Source of the DNA: a virus
Reading direction: 5' to 3' (one strand)
Length of the DNA stretch: 64,000 bases
IMG/VR virus record: IMGVR_UViG_3300021600_000005
Span: 26,169-90,168 of that record
Every line of letters begins with the position of its first letter. Position 1 is the first letter of the stretch. Below, piece by piece: positions 243 to 56,836 of the stretch. The translations under genes and the position numbers were made by a program. Below the pieces are notes generated by a model. The model ran no database searches. It was given only the letters and a program-made list of their open reading frames with translations, and was not told the origin of the DNA.

Positions 243-470
243 ATGGAAATAATGATTTTAAAAAAAGAATATGAATGGGTTTTAAAAATATTAAACTCTT
301 CTATTAATTTATATCAAATAAAAACATCTGAAAATTTATTTAATGCGTTTATTAATAAATGGGATGATGAAATATCTGATGAAAAAAAAATAACTTTATT
401 TTATGAATTTAAAAAAAATAAGTTATCAAAATGTGATGAAATTGGTTTTTCAACCTTTAAAATTTATTAA
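243..470 (+). CDS. Hypothetical protein (MEIMILKKEY...)
   Basis: ATG at 243 directly follows the upstream stop; the longer 180 start overlaps the previous gene. Confidence 0.6.
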   Translation: MEIMILKKEYEWVLKILNSSINLYQIKTSENLFNAFINKWDDEISDEKKITLFYEFKKNKLSKCDEIGFSTFKIY

Positions 471-542
471 GGATAATTATTCATATGTAGGTATATAGTT
501 GAGGTAGTTATATAACCCTTCAAATTTAATGTTTCCTCCACC
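445..542 (-). repeat. Repeat-spacer-degenerate repeat unit at the 3' end of P1
   Basis: 36-nt GGTGGAGGAAACATTAAATTTGAAGGGTTATATAAC (507-542, minus), about 26 nt unique, then a copy whose 3' 22 nt (TAAATTTTAAAGGTTGAAAAAC) stay in register. Confidence 0.6.
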
Positions 543-775
543 CAGTCTTTTGTAATCGACTGAAGTTCTTTATATTCAAGTGAAAACATGGATTCTAAAA
601 ATGACCAAATTGTATCATAATCAAAATAAAATTGTTTATTTATCCTATCTATCTGAGCAAGTCTTTTTTTATTTTTAACATAATAAGAACCAATAATTTC
701 AACATCAGAAAACATATCGTTTAACCAATCCTTAACCAATCTTGCCCTTTGCGTTTTTGTTATGTTAATTTTCAT
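467..775 (-). CDS. Repeat-spacer-associated small protein, paralog P1 (MKINITKTQ family)
   Basis: One of five near-identical ~100-aa paralogs; TATTTATA motif just upstream. Confidence 0.9.
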   Translation of the reverse strand: MKINITKTQRARLVKDWLNDMFSDVEIIGSYYVKNKKRLAQIDRINKQFYFDYDTIWSFLESMFSLEYKELQSITKDWVEETLNLKGYITTSTIYLHMNNYP

Positions 776-777
776 TT

Positions 778-888
778 AATATAAATACTTTAAAATTTAA
801 CGACTCTTTCACCGATTATGTCCTCCATATAGTAGTATTGGGATTATAAGTAGTTTTATGGCCCTTCAAATTTAATGTTTCTTCCACC
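778..888 (-). repeat. Repeat-spacer-repeat unit at the 3' end of P2
   Basis: GGTGGAAGAAACATTAAATTTGAAGGGCCATAAAAC (853-888), 39-nt unique segment, GGTGAAAGAGTCGTTAAATTTTAAAGTATTTATATT (778-813). Confidence 0.75.
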
Positions 889-1121
889 CAGTCTTCTGTA
901 ATAGCTTGCAGTTCCCTATATTCAAGTGAAAACACGGATTCTAAAAATAACCAAATTGTATTATAATCAAACCAAAACTCCTTATTTTTTTTATCATGGA
1001 AACCAATGTTTTTTTTATTTTTAACATAATAAGACCCAAGTATTTCAGCATCAGAAAACATATCGTTTAACCAATCCTTAACCAATCTTGCCCTTTGTGT
1101 TTTTGTTATGTTAATTTTCAT
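816..1121 (-). CDS. Repeat-spacer-associated small protein, paralog P2
   Basis: Paralog of P1 and P3-P5. Confidence 0.9.
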   Translation of the reverse strand: MKINITKTQRARLVKDWLNDMFSDAEILGSYYVKNKKNIGFHDKKNKEFWFDYNTIWLFLESVFSLEYRELQAITEDWVEETLNLKGHKTTYNPNTTIWRT

Positions 1122-12428: not shown

Positions 12429-12674
12429 TAAATTTATTTATAATTTAGTTCTTTTAACTTTTTTACCAACAGGCAGTTCGTTTGATTTATATTTTACCTC
12501 AACTTCATATGGGTTTATTGAACTTATTTTTGAATTATATTTCCATATGAATTTAGCAACGTCATTTTCAGAAATAACTTCCCATTTAAAATTATTTAAC
12601 GTTTTATTTTTTTCCATTTAACAATGATAGTTAAAAAATAGATAAAAACCTAATTAAATGTATTTATAAGAGGT

Positions 12675-13718
12675 ATGAATATTATAATTAAAGAACATCA
12701 ATATTTAAAAATATTAACTGAATCTTTAGGGGTTTCTAGAGCAAGTTTACATTATGTTAATGTGATTTATAAAATATTGGAACCTACGGTCTTAAAATTT
12801 TTAAATTCAAATCGTGATTTAAATGAAAAAATAAATATTGATTTAAATGATTTAAAGGAAGTTTATCAAGATTTTCCTGAAGATTATATTGAATTTCCAA
12901 TTGAACAAATTGTTATTAATCTTAATTGTAAAAAAATAAATAAAATTAATGACAATGCGAATTTTTTTTCTGGGGGAGGGGCTTATAGTATTAGACCAAA
13001 AAAAGAAAAAACAACCCATGTAAAAATTCCATCTAAATTCTTACCAAAATATGTTACAGACGAAATAAATAAAACTATTATTTCTGAGTTTGATTTTACG
13101 GTTACTATATTTAAAAACTATGAAGAAACTAATAAAGACGATTTATTGTTTTTATTACGTGATGCAATATCTCATGAATGTAACCATATGTTTGAGTATT
13201 ATAAAAGAAACGAAAACAATGCTCCCGATGTGGATAACAGATTTACCTGGTCAGGAGTTAAAAATTACAACGTACCTAAAAACATTTGGAATATTTGGGA
13301 ACAATTTACAACAATGCTTTATTTTTCTCAACCACAAGAAATGAATGCTATGACACAAGAAGTTTATAGTGTTAGTTTAAGGAAATCTTTTGAAGAATTT
13401 AAACAAGGTGGTTATTGGCGCTCCGCAATTGTTATGGAAAATTTTGACGCTGACGAATTTATGGACAATTTAGTTAATGAGATTAATAAATATAATCCAG
13501 ACTATATTAAACCTATACTAATAAATTTAAGAAATTGGTTTATAAAAGATTATGTAAATTATGGGGTTTCTGAAAAACTTCCAATAAATCAAAAACTTTT
13601 AAGTAAAAAAGAAATTTTTAGTTTGACAAAATTTTTTGAACCAAGAATACGGTTAGCCGGTAAAAAACTTAAATCTAATTTCATTAGGACTTTTTCTATC
13701 CCTAGAGAATCGATATAA
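12675..13718 (+). CDS. Hypothetical protein with zincin-like HExxH motif
   Basis: ISHECNH...EMNA; TATTTATA upstream. Confidence 0.65.
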   Translation: MNIIIKEHQYLKILTESLGVSRASLHYVNVIYKILEPTVLKFLNSNRDLNEKINIDLNDLKEVYQDFPEDYIEFPIEQIVINLNCKKINKINDNANFFSGGGAYSIRPKKEKTTHVKIPSKFLPKYVTDEINKTIISEFDFTVTIFKNYEETNKDDLLFLLRDAISHECNHMFEYYKRNENNAPDVDNRFTWSGVKNYNVPKNIWNIWEQFTTMLYFSQPQEMNAMTQEVYSVSLRKSFEEFKQGGYWRSAIVMENFDADEFMDNLVNEINKYNPDYIKPILINLRNWFIKDYVNYGVSEKLPINQKLLSKKEIFSLTKFFEPRIRLAGKKLKSNFIRTFSIPRESI

Positions 13719-13724
13719 TGACTG

Positions 13725-13760
13725 GTCAGAAGAAACATTAAATTTTAAGGTATTTATATA
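13725..13760 (+). repeat. Solo copy of the 36-nt repeat, fused to the TATTTATA motif upstream of P3
   Basis: GTCAGAAGAAACATTAAATTTTAAGGTATTTATATA. Confidence 0.75.
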
Positions 13761-13762
13761 AA

Positions 13763-14077
13763 ATGAAAATTAACATAACTAAAACACAAAGAGCAAGATT
13801 GGTTAAGGATTGGTTAAACGATATGTTTTCTGGTGCTGAAATAAAAAATACTGATTATGGTAATTCTTATTATATTAAAAATGAAAAAAACCTTGCTTTT
13901 CAGAATAAAAAAAATAAAGATTTTCGGTTTGATTACGACCTAATTTGGTCATTTTTAGAATCCATTTTTTCACTTGAATATGAAGAACTGCAATCTATCA
14001 CAAAAGACTGGTTGGACGAGACATTAAATTTGAAGGGATATACAACATCTTATTTACGCAACTTATCTTGGACATAG
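13763..14077 (+). CDS. Repeat-spacer-associated small protein, paralog P3
   Basis: Paralog family. Confidence 0.9.
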   Translation: MKINITKTQRARLVKDWLNDMFSGAEIKNTDYGNSYYIKNEKNLAFQNKKNKDFRFDYDLIWSFLESIFSLEYEELQSITKDWLDETLNLKGYTTSYLRNLSWT

Positions 14078-14112
14078 TTGGGCGAGACATTAAATTTGAA
14101 GGTATTTATATA
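14011..14112 (+). CRISPR. CRISPR-like mini-array (36-nt repeat, 30-nt spacer, repeat) overlapping the P3 3' end
   Basis: GTTGGACGAGACATTAAATTTGAAGGGATATACAAC / ATCTTATTTACGCAACTTATCTTGGACATA / GTTGGGCGAGACATTAAATTTGAAGGTATTTATATA. Confidence 0.55.
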
Positions 14113-14114
14113 AA

Positions 14115-14414
14115 ATGAAAATTAACATAACTAAAACACAAAGGGCAAGATTGGTTAAGGATTGGTTAAACGATATGTTTTCTGATACTGAAATAATTGA
14201 TTCTTATTATGTTAAAAATGGAAAAAAAATTGCTTTTCGGGAGAAAGAAAATAAAGAGTTTTGGTTTGATTATGACTTAATTTGGTCATTTTTAGAATCC
14301 ATGTTTTCACTTAAATATAAAGAACTGCAAGCTATTACAGAAGACTGGGTGGATGAAACATTAAATTTTAGGGGTTATACAACTTCGCCTCACATGTATC
14401 TCGAACAACGTTAG
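14115..14414 (+). CDS. Repeat-spacer-associated small protein, paralog P4
   Basis: Paralog family. Confidence 0.9.
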   Translation: MKINITKTQRARLVKDWLNDMFSDTEIIDSYYVKNGKKIAFREKENKEFWFDYDLIWSFLESMFSLKYKELQAITEDWVDETLNFRGYTTSPHMYLEQR

Positions 14415-14449
14415 GTGGATGAAACATTAAATTTGAAAGTAATTATATA
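14348..14449 (+). CRISPR. CRISPR-like mini-array overlapping the P4 3' end
   Basis: GGTGGATGAAACATTAAATTTTAGGGGTTATACAAC / TTCGCCTCACATGTATCTCGAACAACGTTA (30 nt) / GGTGGATGAAACATTAAATTTGAAAGTAATTATATA. Confidence 0.55.
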
Positions 14450-14451
14450 AA

Positions 14452-14757
14452 ATGAAAATTAACATAACAAAAACACAAAGAGCAAGATTGGTTAAGGAAT
14501 GGTTAAACGATATGTTTTCTGATGTTGAAATTATTGGTTCTTTTGATAATAGAGGAGTGACTTATAGTAAAAACGGAGAAAATATTGCTTTCCAGGATAA
14601 AAAAGATAAAGACTTTTGGTTTGATTATGATATAATTTGGTTATTTTTAGAATCTATGTTTTCGCTCGAATATGAAGAACTGCAATCCATTACAGAAGAC
14701 TGGTTGGAAAAAACATTAAATTTGAAAGGTTATAGAACGTCAGGGGCTCCAGTGTAA
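14452..14757 (+). CDS. Repeat-spacer-associated small protein, paralog P5
   Basis: Paralog family. Confidence 0.9.
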   Translation: MKINITKTQRARLVKEWLNDMFSDVEIIGSFDNRGVTYSKNGENIAFQDKKDKDFWFDYDIIWLFLESMFSLEYEELQSITEDWLEKTLNLKGYRTSGAPV

Positions 14758-14804
14758 TTAAACACATTTGTTGGATGAGACATTAAATTTAAGGGACAAA
14801 CAAG
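14703..14804 (+). CRISPR. CRISPR-like mini-array overlapping the P5 3' end
   Basis: GTTGGAAAAAACATTAAATTTGAAAGGTTATAGAAC / GTCAGGGGCTCCAGTGTAATTAAACACATTT (31 nt) / GTTGGATGAGACATTAAATTTAAGGGACAAACAAG. Confidence 0.55.
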
Positions 14805-14916
14805 TATATTAACTGACATTATGTCAGTTTTTTTATGCTTGGTATAATTTTTAATATGTGGGGTTTGTGCTTGACACATTAAAATTAAAAATATATATTT
14901 TAATAAAAAATTATTT

Positions 14917-16788
14917 ATGGGTAAAATTATTGGTATTGATTTAGGAACTACGAATTCGTGTGTTTCTGTAATGGAAAATGGGGAACCTGTTGTTATAACA
15001 AATAACGAAGGAAAAAGAACCACCCCCTCAATTGTTGGTTTTTTAAAAGATGGTGAAAGAAAAATTGGTGACCCGGCAAAAAGACAATCGGTTACAAATC
15101 CAACTAACACTGTTTATTCAATAAAAAGATTTATGGGGTTAAATTTTGACGAATCAAAATCAGAAATTAAAAAAGTACCTTATAAAGTTGTTAAAGGTGA
15201 TAATAATACAACTAGAGTTGATATTGACGGAAAATTATATTCTCCTCAAGAAATTTCATCAGTTATTTTACAAAAAATGAAACAAACTGCTGAAGATTAT
15301 TTAGGTCAAGAAGTGACTGAAGCGGTTATTACAGTTCCGGCTTATTTTAACGACGCTCAACGTCAATCAACAAAAGAAGCCGCAGAAATTGTTGGGTTAA
15401 AAGTTGCTAGAATTATTAATGAGCCTACAGCTGCCGCCTTAGCTTATGGTTTTGACAAAAAAGATAAAGATATGAAAATCGTTGTTTTTGATTGTGGTGG
15501 AGGAACTCACGATGTTTCAGTGTTACAATTAGGAGATGGTATTTTTGAAGTGTTATCTACTGACGGAAATACTCATTTAGGTGGAGATGATTTTGATGAC
15601 GTTATTATTGACTATTTAGTAAAAGAGTTTAAAAAAGATAATGGTATTGACCTTAAAAAAGATTCAATGGCGTTACAACGATTGAGAGAGGCGGCTGAAA
15701 AAGCTAAAATAGAACTTTCTTCGTCGATTTCAACTGAAATTAATTTACCTTACATTATGCCGGTAGACGGTATTCCTAAACATTTGGTTACTAATTTAAC
15801 AAGGTCAAAATTTGAACAATTAGTTAATGATTTAGTTAAAAAAACAATTAACCCATGTAAATCCGCTTTAGAAAAGGCTAAATTAAAAGTATCGGATATT
15901 GATGAAATTATTCTTGTTGGGGGGTCAACTCGTATTCCAGTTATTCAACAAGCGGTGAAAGACTTTTTTGGTAAAGAACCGTCAAAAAGTGTTAATCCTG
16001 ATGAAGTTGTTGCTCTTGGAGCCGCAATTCAAGGGGGAGTATTAGGTGGTGACGTTAAAGATGTTTTATTATTAGATGTTACTCCGTTATCCTTAGGTAT
16101 TGAAACTATGGGAGGTGTTTTTACTAAATTAATAGATTCAAATACAACTATTCCAACCAGACAGTCTCAAGTATTTTCGACAGCTGTTGATAATCAACCA
16201 AGTGTAGAAATACATGTTTTGCAAGGCGAACGTCCAATGTCATCCGATAACAAAACAATTGGAAGATTTCATTTAGATGGACTTCCTCCGGCTCGTAGAG
16301 GAACACCTCAAATTGAAGTGGTTTTTGATATTGACGCTAATGGTATTATAAATGTTTCAGCAATTGATAAAGCGACTGATAAAAAACAATCAATACGTAT
16401 TGAATCATCTACTGGTTTATCAAAAGAAGAAATTCAAAAAATGAAACAAGACGCTGAGTTAAACGCCGAATCAGACAAAAAGAAAAAAGAAGATGTTGAA
16501 ACGTTAAATACTGCGGACAACTTAATGTTTCAAACTGAGAAAACTTTAAATGAAAGTGAAACTAAAATTCCATCGGATAAAAAAACTGAAATTGATAACA
16601 CAATTAAAGAACTAAGACAACATCATTTAGAAAAAAATATTCCAATGGTTGAAAAATTAATGGGTGAACTTAATGAACAAATTCAAAAAGTTGTTAGTGT
16701 GATGTACGAATCAAAAGAACCTCAAGATAATTCCACAGAAAATTCTGGTGAAAACTTAACAGATGTTGAGTTTGAAAACGTTAAATAA
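14917..16788 (+). CDS. dnaK: Molecular chaperone DnaK (Hsp70)
   Basis: [61 protein letters not shown]. Confidence 0.98.
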
Positions 16789-22613: not shown

Positions 22614-22685
22614 GCCCCCGTAGGTAAAGGGATATACCAAAAATTTTCTAAATTTTCGTTTCTGGTTCGAGTCCAGACGGGGGTA
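22614..22685 (+). tRNA. tRNA-Arg(UCU)
   Basis: Acceptor GCCCCCG/CGGGGGT, anticodon arm AAAAT-TTTCTAA-ATTTT, T arm TCTGG-TTCGAGT-CCAGA. Confidence 0.88.
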
Positions 22686-22707
22686 CAAAAAATAAGTTTA
22701 AAATAAA

Positions 22708-25329: not shown

Positions 25330-25400
25330 AGTCAGGTGGCGGAATGGTAGACGCAGGTATCTCAAGATATGATTACAAGGTTCGATTCCTGTTCTGATTA
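25330..25400 (+). tRNA. tRNA-like element (Leu-type D arm, aberrant anticodon arm containing CAA)
   Basis: Acceptor AGTCAGG/TCTGATT, D arm GCG-GAATGGTAGA-CGC, GGTTCGATTCC T loop; the anticodon stem closes only a 4-nt loop; no long variable arm. Confidence 0.6.
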
Positions 25401-29986: not shown

Positions 29987-30020
29987 TTTTTAATATTTAT
30001 TCTTAAACATATTTATAAAT

Positions 30021-31457: not shown

Positions 31458-32291
31458 ATGGAAAGAAATTATGAATTATTAAAAAGTGTATTATCTGTAG
31501 CAACTCACACTTATCAGGAAGAATTAATGATTAATTTTATTGAAAATTGGTTAGTTGAAAATAATCTACCATATTTTGTTGATGATATGGGGAATATTTA
31601 TGTAACAAAACAAACTGACCAAAATATTAAATTTTTTCCATGTGTTGTCTCTCATACAGATACTGTACATAATATCGACACCATTAACATTCGAGAGACT
31701 ATATTACCAAACACTCAAAATATAATGAAACCATCTTTAAATGCCTTTAATAACGAAGGTAAACCAACTGGGATTGGCGGGGATGATAAATGTGGAGTTT
31801 ACGCTTGTTTAGAATTACTTAAAGAATTACCTAATTTAAAGGCGGCGTTTTTTGTTTCAGAAGAAACTGGGTGTTATGGTTCAAGGTCAGCAAATAAATC
31901 ATTTTTTGAAAATGTTGGTTATGCTATACAGTTTGACGCTCCTGGTAATAGAATGATTACTGAAATCTCTATGGGTACTAGGTTATTTGAACTAAATGGA
32001 GACTTTCATAAAATAACAAGTAATATTTTAAATGAAGAATTTAACGGTACTGGAGAATATGGTTCACATCCATATACCGATATATATGCTTTAAAACATT
32101 TATTTGATTTTTCATGTATTAACATCTCTATTGGGTATTATAGATACCATACAAGAAATGAGTACGTGGTTATTGAAGATGTTTATAACGGTATTAATGT
32201 TGGAAAAAAAATAATTGAAGGACTGTCGTATAAAAAATACAAATATTTACCAGATTCAAATTATTTATTTAATACAAAAAAACAGTTTTAA
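31458..32291 (+). CDS. M20/M28/M42-clan zinc peptidase
   Basis: SHTDTVH, GGDDKCG, SEETG, H near the C-terminus. Confidence 0.85.
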   Translation: MERNYELLKSVLSVATHTYQEELMINFIENWLVENNLPYFVDDMGNIYVTKQTDQNIKFFPCVVSHTDTVHNIDTINIRETILPNTQNIMKPSLNAFNNEGKPTGIGGDDKCGVYACLELLKELPNLKAAFFVSEETGCYGSRSANKSFFENVGYAIQFDAPGNRMITEISMGTRLFELNGDFHKITSNILNEEFNGTGEYGSHPYTDIYALKHLFDFSCINISIGYYRYHTRNEYVVIEDVYNGINVGKKIIEGLSYKKYKYLPDSNYLFNTKKQF

Positions 32292-34354
32292 TCAATCTTT
32301 TTTTTCTTTCTTGTTTTTTTTGGTTTTTCTTCAATTTCATTTTGATTATCAGGCAAAAGTATTTTAACCAAGTTGTTTTCTGAAGTCAAAGAATAGTTAC
32401 CATTTTCGATAATGTTACCTTTAATAATTTCTTCAGATATAAAATCTTCTATTTTATCCTGAATAGCTCTTTTTATTGGTCTTGCACCATATGTTTCATC
32501 AAACCCAACTTCAGAAATTAAATTTAAGACTGTTTCATCAAAAGTTATATTATAATTTAAACCAATTAACCTTTTAGATAGAACATCCAATTCTATAGTT
32601 ACTATTTTTTTAATATCTTCTTTAACCAACGCGTTAAAAATTACTATTTCATCAACTCTATTTAAAAATTCAGGAGAAAAAAAGTTTTTAAGTTCTTTTT
32701 TTAACACATCTCTACGATGTTCTTCTTCAGCATATGAATTATTAATAGTTTTAAATCCAACTCCAGTTCCAAAATCTTGTAATTTTTTTGAACCAATATT
32801 AGAGGTCATAATGATTACACAATTTTTAAAATTAATTTTTTTACCTAAACTATCCGTTAAATGTCCTTCATCTAGTACTTGAAGTAACGTTGAAAAAATA
32901 TCTTTATGGGCTTTTTCAACCTCATCAAATAAAATTACAGAATACGGTCTATTTTTAACTTGTTCAGTTAATTGTCCTCCATCTTCATAACCAACATACC
33001 CACTAGGAGCTCCAATTAATCTTGATATAGTGTGTTTTTCTTGATATTCTGACATATCCACACGAATTAAATTATCTTCACTACCAAACATTTCTTTTGC
33101 TAATTTTTTGGCCAATAACGTTTTACCAACACCTGTTGACCCGAGAAAAATAAAAGAACCAATTGGTTTATTAGGGTCTTTTATACCTAACCTATTTCTT
33201 CTAATTGATTTTGCAACTTTTAATACCGCTTCTTCCTGACCAATAACTTTACCAGATAAATTATCTGCCAATTTTGATAATAAAACTGTTTCGTCAAAAT
33301 TTAATTTTGTAATTGGAATTTTAGTCATATTTGATACGACCTCATAAACCAAGTCAATTGTGATTATTTTCTTTTTTATTAAGAGTTCTTCTTCAAATTT
33401 TTTCTTTTCAGAACTTAATTTATCTAAAATTTTCTTTTCTTTATCTCTAAGATTTGCGGCCTCTTCATAGTTTTGTTTTTTAACAACATCTATTTTTTGT
33501 TGTTTAATTTTTTGCGCCTGTTCTTTCAAATCGTCAATAACAAATGGCATTTTAACTTCAACCTGACTACGAGCTCCAACTTCATCAATAATATCAAATG
33601 CTTTATCTGGGAATTCTCTGTCTGTAATATATCTTTCAGACAAATCAACACATAACGATAAAACTTCATCACTATAGAGTACTTTATGAAAAGTTTCATA
33701 TTTATCCTTAACATTTTTAAGGATTTCTAAGGTTTCTTTTTTACTTGTTGGGTCAATTATTACTTTTTGAAAACGTCTTTCTAATGCTCCATCTTTTTCA
33801 AAGTTTTTTCTATACTCATCTAATGTTGTTGCTCCAACACATTGAATTTCACCTCTAGCTAACGCTGGTTTAAATATATTAGAAGCGTCTAAAGAACCTG
33901 AAGAATTACCGGCTCCAACGATTGTGTGTATTTCATCAATAAAAACAATAATATTAGATTGAGACTGAAGTTCATCTATAATAACTTTCATTCTTTCTTC
34001 AAATTGACCTCTGTATTTAGTTCCGGCAACAATTGAGGTCATATCTAATGAAACTACTCTTTTATCCGCTAAATTTCTTGGACAATCACCATTATATATT
34101 TTTATTGCTAACCCTTCAATAATAGCCGTTTTTCCACTTCCTGGAGCCCCAATAATAATTGGGTTATTTTTTTTACGTCTAGATAAAATTTGAGCAATTC
34201 TCATTATTTCACGTTCACGTCCAATTACCGGGTCAAGTTTACCTTCCTCCGCCAATTTTATTAAATCTCTACTAAAGTTATCTAAAACTGGTGTTGGGGA
34301 GTCAGAATCTTTTTTTGGTTTTTGTTTACCATCATTTTCTACAGAATCGGTCAT
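32288..34354 (-). CDS. clpC: ClpC-like AAA+ ATPase lacking the N-terminal domain
   Basis: LDPVIGR, GAPGSGKT, FIDEIH, GSTGVGKT, DMSEY, LFDEVEKAH, UVR-like YEEAANLRD, GVGF loop, YGARP. Confidence 0.9.
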   Translation of the reverse strand: MTDSVENDGKQKPKKDSDSPTPVLDNFSRDLIKLAEEGKLDPVIGREREIMRIAQILSRRKKNNPIIIGAPGSGKTAIIEGLAIKIYNGDCPRNLADKRVVSLDMTSIVAGTKYRGQFEERMKVIIDELQSQSNIIVFIDEIHTIVGAGNSSGSLDASNIFKPALARGEIQCVGATTLDEYRKNFEKDGALERRFQKVIIDPTSKKETLEILKNVKDKYETFHKVLYSDEVLSLCVDLSERYITDREFPDKAFDIIDEVGARSQVEVKMPFVIDDLKEQAQKIKQQKIDVVKKQNYEEAANLRDKEKKILDKLSSEKKKFEEELLIKKKIITIDLVYEVVSNMTKIPITKLNFDETVLLSKLADNLSGKVIGQEEAVLKVAKSIRRNRLGIKDPNKPIGSFIFLGSTGVGKTLLAKKLAKEMFGSEDNLIRVDMSEYQEKHTISRLIGAPSGYVGYEDGGQLTEQVKNRPYSVILFDEVEKAHKDIFSTLLQVLDEGHLTDSLGKKINFKNCVIIMTSNIGSKKLQDFGTGVGFKTINNSYAEEEHRRDVLKKELKNFFSPEFLNRVDEIVIFNALVKEDIKKIVTIELDVLSKRLIGLNYNITFDETVLNLISEVGFDETYGARPIKRAIQDKIEDFISEEIIKGNIIENGNYSLTSENNLVKILLPDNQNEIEEKPKKTRKKKKID

Positions 34355-56812: not shown

Positions 56813-56836
56813 TTAAAATAAAGATATTTATATATT

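Follow-up and report, generated by a model that had tools for sequence, protein, structure and literature searches.

The window analysed here, a stretch of 64,000 nucleotides (nt), corresponds to bases 26169-90168 of a 90-kb virus record (IMG/VR IMGVR_UViG_3300021600_000005) with an estimated completeness of ~30 %. It comes from a T4-like lake phage: a T4-type major capsid protein, portal, large terminase, ClpB and DnaK are encoded in the window, and ~70 % of its sampled words are present in ~14 runs, which belong to 13 studies of freshwater or lakes. Five paralogous open reading frames (ORFs) of 99-104 amino acids (aa), P1 and P2 on the minus strand and P3, P4 and P5 on the plus strand, each run into a 36-nt repeat that recurs behind a spacer (Table 1). 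In each ORF, the repeat opens at the last base of a tryptophan codon, within a conserved DW(L/V)(D/E)ETLNLKGYT helix motif. By anatomy and turnover, these are CRISPR-type arrays, and each apparent repeat 'pair' consists of the first and the terminal repeat of an array with one spacer.

Two such pairs, those of P3 and P4, lie within 14011-14449. The distance from the start of the first repeat to that of the second is 66 nt in P3 and in P4, 67 nt in P5 and 75 nt in P2 (minus strand), and in P1 62 nt separate the start of the first repeat from that of a decayed second copy. In the window, the 17-nt core of the repeat is matched 9 times where 0.93 matches are expected, and a scan with a position-specific scoring matrix (PSSM) located at least 16 repeat copies across the 90 kb. 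As in CRISPR arrays generally, the direct repeats are near-identical and of a fixed length of 36 nt, they are parted by unrelated spacers of near-constant length, and the terminal repeat is degenerate, its copies diverging over the last ~11 nt. The arrays are short, with one to three spacers, and the repeat sequences vary between arrays inside one genome. Most of the unique spacers (13 of 17) are exactly 30 nt long, the remainder being 31, 31, 32 and 39 nt; the 39-nt spacer is that of P2 and consists of the 30-nt form present in the relative L014 plus 9 nt. The spacers have no similarity to one another or to the remaining 90 kb, and their mean guanine plus cytosine (GC) content of 37.6 % exceeds the 28 % of the genome (p ~1e-4).

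Table 1. Features of the repeat-bearing paralogues and their arrays, in window coordinates
Feature	Position	Strand	Remarks
P1, 102-aa paralogue (ORF 467-775)	locus 445..775	-	repeat 507-542; 26-nt spacer 481-506; decayed terminal repeat 445-480
P2, 101-aa paralogue ORF	816..1121	-	repeat 853-888; spacer 814-852; terminal repeat 778-813
Solo degenerate repeat before P3	13725..13760	+	from the PSSM scan; 5' part repeat-like, end is TATTTATA; preceded by GACTG as in true arrays
P3, 104-aa paralogue ORF	13763..14077	+	last 22 codons are repeat plus spacer
P3 first (leader-side) 36-nt repeat	14011..14046	+	codes (W)LDETLNLKGYT
P3 spacer, 30 nt	14047..14076	+	tail SYLRNLSWT; TAG stop straddles the junction of spacer and terminal repeat
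P3 terminal repeat	14077..14112	+	first 26 nt match 14011-14036 with 1 mismatch
P4, 99-aa paralogue ORF	14115..14414	+	
P4 first 36-nt repeat	14348..14383	+	private variant TTTTAGGGG
P4 spacer, 30 nt	14384..14413	+	distal (older) spacer in L011; in L016 with one mismatch
P4 terminal repeat	14414..14449	+	first 21 nt identical to 14348-14368; TAATTATATA end, then P5 ATG
P5, 101-aa paralogue ORF	14452..14757	+	
P5 first repeat	14703..14738	+	
P5 spacer, 31 nt	14739..14769	+	common to L013 and L016
P5 terminal repeat	14770..14805	+	degenerate; no paralogue after it; lacks the TATTTATA end
Terminator-like hairpin and T-run closing the cassette cluster	14811..14829	+	

Relatives, found as metagenome contigs, whose flanks are ~98-99 % identical have extra leader-side units, another spacer in the same place, or one or two fewer cassettes. 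In the P4 orthologue of relative L011, a repeat and a new 32-nt spacer are followed by another repeat, the P4 spacer of the window and the terminal repeat; both full repeats bear the private TTTTAGGGG of P4, and the extra unit is on the ORF side with the old spacer distal to it. The same tail is found in proteins P0009 and P0058 from other assemblies. In L013, a new spacer occupies the proximal position between two repeats, followed by the P5 spacer of the window and the terminal repeat, and the gene for protein P0008 has a new unit ahead of a P2-type spacer. Gain is thus polarised and accompanied by duplication of the leader-side repeat, a pattern to which these three cases (L011, L013 and P0008) lend modest support. 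Furthermore, the P1 orthologue of L014 carries an entirely different 30-nt spacer with the terminal repeat intact, L017 and L018 have two spacers each, and one spacer is altered by a 9-nt in-frame indel and point changes. Whole cassettes come and go as well: L016 differs from the window in lacking exactly the 352-bp P3 cassette, the flanks being 99 % identical, and L013 has one ORF only between a 347-aa gene and dnaK, so the number of cassettes is polymorphic. The original prediction had proposed that cassettes could be amplified, excised or shuffled by recombination between the repeats. Gain and loss of cassettes is indeed what the relatives display, but the crossover need not fall in a repeat, because the whole ~350-bp tandem homology is usable for it, and this takes in the first ~100 nt of the ORFs, which are nearly identical.

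The prediction had also held that the two copies of P3, like those of P4, are closer to each other than to the other unit, and both the letters and a test on a larger set of arrays agree with this. The P3 copies open with GTTGGACGAGAC (14011) and GTTGGGCGAGAC (14077), and GGTGGATGAAAC opens both P4 copies; over 25 nt, the first and last repeats are 87 % identical within arrays and 76 % identical between arrays (permutation p ~1e-5 for 16 non-identical arrays of this phage and of its relatives, some of which are orthologous yet counted as independent, so that this value is optimistic). The P5 and P2 pairs, which had been described as less concordant, are the least so of all, at 76 % over 25 nt each. 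The opposite pattern, with repeat copies clustering by position and no spacer polymorphism, was not found: spacers differ among close relatives. Concordance is restricted to the 5' ~25 nt, and the final ~11 nt track position, being TATACAAC-like in first and internal copies and TATTTATATA in terminal copies that precede a paralogue. In the P3 terminal repeat, the last 10 nt are replaced by this TATTTATATA, the gene-start motif of P4. The copies at 14077 and 14414 finish in (T/A)ATTATATAAA-type sequence directly 5' of the next ATG, that is, in GTATTTATATAAAATG (P3) and GTAATTATATAAAATG (P4), which bears out the claim that downstream copies end in a motif plus the start of the next paralogue. 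The solo copy that had been placed ahead of P3 is likewise present as a degenerate repeat (Table 1), and the PSSM scan located the same solo copy ahead of the first paralogue in L011, L013, L016, L017, L018 and L020. The likeness within pairs had been attributed to duplication of the repeat at spacer insertion or to co-evolution of the pair. Such duplication, with a new leader-side spacer, is what L011, L013 and P0008 display, but it copies the whole 36 nt and cannot alone yield a terminal copy that agrees in the 5' 25 nt only; therefore, subsequent recombination or conversion between repeats is needed.

The 8-mer TATTTATA, in the original prediction part of a putative late promoter, is a genuine gene-start motif that is used genome-wide: 19 of its 40 copies in the genome are located no more than 60 nt upstream of ORF starts, mostly at 3-17 nt, compared to 1.5 expected. 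Being so near the ATG, it would imply leaderless or very short-leader transcripts or, alternatively, a signal for translation initiation. In addition, TAAATTTG inside the repeat matches the Bacteroidota -7 box TAnnTTTG at 16 nt before the next ATG, and this box is ~3-fold enriched upstream of ORFs. Examples of TATTTATA elsewhere in the window are at 12661-12668, 30010-30017 and 56825-56832.

The P1-P5 ORFs are real genes. The ratio of nonsynonymous to synonymous substitution rates (dN/dS) in the paralogue bodies is 0.24-0.62 in 9 of 10 pairs, with 0.94 for the P3/P4 pair, where divergence is low, and the family has 123 homologues in public data. AlphaFold2 models of P3 (mean predicted local distance difference test, pLDDT, 92; predicted template modelling score, pTM, 0.84) and P1 (pLDDT 90.6) adopt the same alpha/beta fold, in which the last beta strand comprises two repeat-coded and three spacer-coded residues. 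Among 55 distinct tails or clusters, a single one is of 3 aa or less, compared to 24 % expected for random spacers (p = 6e-6), and tails of 4-9 aa are over-represented (p = 1e-10). In both models, this strand is completed by the first three spacer-coded residues, which explains the near absence of early stops: a spacer survives only if it remains open for ~4 codons or more. Given the depletion of short tails and a strand that is partly spacer-coded, selection filters spacers by the residues that they encode, which would be so for a useful variable tail as much as for one that is only tolerated. Since 36 plus 30 nt amount to 22 codons, insertions remain in frame. We lean towards a tail that is useful in itself because family members with as little as 22-40 % identity retain the architecture. 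The paralogue protein has no match in Pfam, PHROGs or PADLOC, and searches with Foldseek against the PDB and with VIA-align gave no clear fold match, the best being to MCM N-terminal domains (Z 4.8).

One of the distant members, a single-copy homologue with 40 % identity in another phage (L009), contains a 25/25-identical repeat pair 66 nt apart, both copies within the ORF. A paralogue with 22 % identity is located outside the window at G000:C1:4665-5132 (L039:666-1133), where the ORF reads in frame through the array. This region, G000:4665-5132, comprises three near-identical 36-nt repeats at exactly 66-nt spacing, three unrelated spacers of ~30 nt and a degenerate fourth repeat.

Selection at the protein level can also be accommodated without any CRISPR machinery, by a hypervariable C-terminal cassette between conserved codons that homologous recombination of the phage shuffles between paralogues and between co-infecting phages, with local gene conversion giving the concordance of the pairs. 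The units are translated, the one spacer that varies by the 9-nt in-frame indel and point changes would fit as well, ordinary unequal recombination alters cassette number, and T4-type phages are known to shuffle small cassettes at repeated promoter motifs, the promoter early stem-loops (PeSLs; PMC2839356; PMC4122927). However, this scheme provides no source for dozens of unrelated inserts, nearly all of exactly 30 nt and with GC content above that of the genome. It also leaves unexplained why near-identical stretches of 36 nt contrast so sharply with unrelated ones of 30 nt, why gain is polarised towards the leader side, why the terminal repeat is degenerate and why the repeats are like those of Cas13b systems (described below), and we regard it as quite unlikely. 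The resemblance to PeSLs themselves is limited. In both cases, short repeated regulatory motifs flank small ORFs with no assigned function, and close relatives gain or lose cassettes by recombination, but PeSLs are promoter-terminator motifs that flank unrelated ORFs and have no spacers, whereas here a CRISPR-type repeat without a stem-loop flanks paralogues of one gene, so that only cassette gain and loss is common to the two.

Several other schemes were considered. A simple 66-nt tandem duplication was rejected given that the spacer has no relation to what lies 3' of the second repeat; a diversity-generating retroelement, given that the repeats are too short and no adenine-specific pattern is seen; and recoding of TAG, given the TAA stops of P2 and P5. 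Translational bypassing was considered and dropped.

The repeats of the phage resemble those of type VI-B (Cas13b) systems. In Bacteroidota genomes, a genuine VI-B array was found by a search for the pattern GTTG-N27-ACAAC, beside a 1144-aa ORF that matches Cas13b (NF038190, E = 1.7e-246); a family search detected Cas13b in 20 of 401 genomes of the same order, and 10 genuine repeats were obtained beside NF038190 matches. Over the 3' 22 nt, identity of the phage repeats to these 10 repeats is 65-79 %, compared to 52 +/- 6 % for shuffled sequences and 81 % for host repeats among themselves. In the best case, which pairs the first repeat of L014 with that of the Cas13b-bearing Bacteroidota genome G128, a single 1-nt gap is the sole difference in the last ~22 nt. 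The phage repeats also share with VI-B repeats the length of 36 nt, the GTTG...CAAC ends and the conserved TTTGAAGGGTA..ACAAC 3' part, although several copies open with GGTG or close with AGAAC or AAAAC. What they lack is the two-stem hairpin (a terminal stem and an internal CCCTT/AAGGG stem), which is formed by all 10 genuine Cas13b repeats (-5.8 to -12.2 kcal/mol) and by none of 11 phage repeats (0 to -2.3 kcal/mol). Accordingly, the phage repeats are not bona fide Cas13b repeats, although they resemble those of VI-B systems in size, at the ends and in the 3' sequence. In a separate observation, a second array of G128, located on a different contig (L058:276-737; G128:C8), is an orphan with the repeat of the first; no large ORF lies beside it, and its copies differ at repeat positions 28-30.

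This partial likeness raises the question of whether the arrays work as sources of guide RNA, with phage transcripts loading host Cas13b or another Cas protein against competing phages or host genes, a use that has been proposed for the arrays of huge phages and for virus-borne mini-arrays. The 36+30 nt geometry, the GTTG...ACAAC ends and the VI-B-like 3' part in the orientation of CRISPR RNA (crRNA) sense would suit such a function, as would the location in an mRNA that ends at a terminator right after the last repeat. Moreover, cas-less phage arrays are known, some with host-targeting spacers (PMC7162821), and interviral mini-arrays are known as well (cited in PMC10651486). Against this stand the missing hairpin, the variation of repeats between arrays of one genome and the lack of any protospacer in phages, IMG/VR or the Bacteroidota genomes searched (see below). 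In a Cas13b crRNA, the spacer is followed by the repeat. In the one-spacer arrays, the downstream repeat is the terminal copy, which is devoid of exactly the repeat-like 3' part. Because of this loss and the missing hairpin, use of the phage arrays as Cas13b guide RNAs is unlikely, and we assign a low probability to working guide arrays in general.

The explanation that we favour, and consider probable, is that the arrays are of CRISPR type, written in trans and edited by recombination, and that their retained products are protein tails. New units would be written by a Cas1-Cas2-type integrase acting in trans, with the first repeat copied in the process. The host is the likeliest source of this integrase, as it is for the type VI-B array of Flavobacterium columnare, which has no cas1/2 and is filled in trans by proteins of a II-C system, the repeats of both types being 36 bp (PMC8092290); among known working models, this one is the closest. 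Leader-side gain would copy the first repeat and produce identical internal repeats, as in L011 and in the G000:4898 array. A unit would be lost when an internal repeat recombines with the terminal one and the crossover falls within the shared 25 nt, and the result would be a chimeric terminal repeat that combines the 5' variants of its own array with the old 3' end. Repeated cycles of gain and loss would make the repeats of one array alike, though not those of separate arrays, and thereby give rise to the private variants. Both the two-spacer and the one-spacer alleles of one array are observed; the steps that connect them are what we infer. The P5 and P2 arrays, the least concordant, would fit the cycle as well, given that their units of spacer plus terminal repeat are present in relatives, that of P5 unchanged and that of P2 with a 9-nt difference. 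Tandem cassettes would arise by unequal recombination across the ~350-bp unit, which would account for terminal repeats that end in the TATTTATA-ATG of the next gene and for the solo repeat before the first cassette.

A number of results weigh against this explanation, beginning with the missing hairpin and the optimistic p value of the concordance test noted above. No source of the spacers was found. The blastn comparison of both array regions to 50,697 phage records returned chance AT-rich matches only, and exact 22-24-nt cores of four spacers had no match in IMG/VR. Searches of Bacteroidota genomes, in which only the few best candidates per genome were scored, such that sensitivity was low, detected no protospacer either; they covered 301 genomes, and 170 from the family to which a Cas13b-bearing genome belongs, for the G000:4898 array, and 401 from the order of that genome for the P3-P5 arrays. 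With no protospacer matched, the foreign origin of the spacers is suggested by their composition. Furthermore, the 90-kb record, ~30 % of the genome, contains no match to Cas1 (PF01867), Cas2 (PF09827) or Cas13b (NF038190), and no ORF of more than 700 aa. A two-core repeat pattern run over genome contigs did not identify a host array with the repeat of the phage itself; it matched only type-II-like arrays of Clostridia/Filifactor and an unrelated 66-nt repeat of a Bacteroidetes metagenome-assembled genome (MAG). Finally, recombination between existing arrays could yield some of the alleles that we ascribe to Cas1-Cas2 integration.

Other scans with the repeat gave little. Repeat patterns in viral contigs were limited to unrelated single copies or unrelated tandem repeats, and Rfam CRISPR-DR families had no match in 13500-15000 at E values up to 10. 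In a freshwater Bacteroidetes MAG, L028:6716-6824 is a contig-end repeat of at least 44 nt with a 66-nt period that contains ATTGGTTATATAAAG.

The surroundings of the cassettes can be described briefly. Directly 5' of the cluster, the 347-aa ORF at 12675-13718 (+) contains an HExxH motif (HECNH); it has no match in Pfam, PHROGs or PADLOC, and also precedes the cluster in L011, L013, L016, L017 and L020, the relatives that reach that far. On the other side, a TTGACA-17-TATATT site at 14871-14899 lies 3' of the terminator-like hairpin and before dnaK. The DnaK gene (14917-16788, +), the DNA of which is ~69 % identical to dnaK of uncultured phages with 460-735-kb genomes, and that of a ClpB-type disaggregase (32288-34354, -) are thus present together in one T4-like phage. 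The window also encodes a GOLLD RNA (Rfam RF02032, 28229-28638, +; 306.8 bits vs a gathering score of 150, full model matched), a phage transfer-messenger RNA (RF00023, 29535-29927, -; 98.6 bits) that is absent from the ARAGORN calls, and a tRNA-Arg(TCT) at 22614-22686 (+). A weak tRNA-like match at 25330-25400 (+), at 31 bits just over the gathering score, has no ARAGORN call. Between 12 and 32 % of the sampled words of the window are present in six lake metatranscriptomes.

Comparison with described systems places the arrays next to several of them. Like Bacteroidota VI-B arrays, they have 36-nt repeats with GTTG...ACAAC ends and a similar 3' two-thirds, ~30-nt spacers, no adjacent cas1/cas2, addition of units at one end and a degenerate terminal repeat (PMC8092290). 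Unlike those arrays, they are phage-borne, have one to three spacers and repeats that vary between arrays, form no hairpin, are found in a 90-kb record devoid of Cas13b, and have a first repeat and spacers that code for the end of a folded protein. With the compact arrays of huge phages (PMC7162821), they share location on a phage, shortness, lack of Cas1/2/4, often of any effector, and presumed dependence on host Cas proteins, and the same likenesses extend to virus-borne mini-CRISPR arrays, to the extent that these are described in PMC10651486 (Medvedeva 2019, as cited there). As presented in these sources, such arrays are intergenic and stand-alone and have repeats that match those of the host, whereas the present arrays lie in frame within genes of a multi-copy family, and the search of genome contigs gave no host array that matches.

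Solitary repeat units, the RNA anti-CRISPRs (Racrs; PMC10651486), and crRNA-like regulators (10.1101/2024.10.29.618823) are a further parallel, as these too are phage-encoded repeat-like units or one-spacer mini-arrays with a degenerate second repeat, and the degenerate copy at 13725, which stands alone, is similar to the solitary units. On this analogy, repeat-like RNA or DNA of the phage could titrate host Cas13b or divert the host integrase, the spacers being tolerated in-frame accidents. The mimicry of VI-B repeats is only partial, the copies are many (at least 16 in 90 kb), the arrays are short, and both Racrs, identified for all types except VI (PMC10651486), and phage crRNA-like regulators (10.1101/2024.10.29.618823) are established precedents. 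However, Racrs mimic the structure of the host repeat, and the phage repeats have lost the hairpin; Racrs and crRNA-like regulators are non-coding and located behind promoters, whereas the phage repeats code for part of a protein that is folded and conserved and are not behind a promoter of their own. Retention of the repeat-spacer architecture down to 22-40 % identity further suggests that the inserts themselves matter. A decoy role, or no role, is possible for the arrays, but as an account of the whole system we consider decoys improbable.

In our literature search, no description was found of arrays translated as part of a phage protein. Thus, cas-less phage CRISPR arrays as such are known; new in the literature searched are arrays that form the coding 3' end of the gene for a folded multi-copy protein and turn over between near-identical relatives. 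Returning to arrays written in trans and retained as protein tails, we tentatively raise a further-reaching possibility, namely that an integration reaction, of the host or of the phage, writes captured 30-nt DNA in frame into a multi-copy gene family, replacing the last strand and the tail, while recombination multiplies the cassettes. The outcome might be a heritable, fast-changing repertoire of C-termini that is at the same time a record of DNA met, with the use being diversification of a protein rather than immunity or guide RNA.

The family is abundant (123 homologues; ~14 runs from 13 freshwater studies), so read-level tests are feasible. The combination of gain by duplication and loss by recombination is a concrete model for the concerted evolution of repeats within an array, and the phage genome may record the DNA that it has met, with a possible use in host assignment for lake viromes. 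If an integrase does write the units, then phage DNA is open to CRISPR adaptation, repeats that have lost the effector hairpin can serve as its substrate, and its product can be a segment of a protein instead of a guide RNA.

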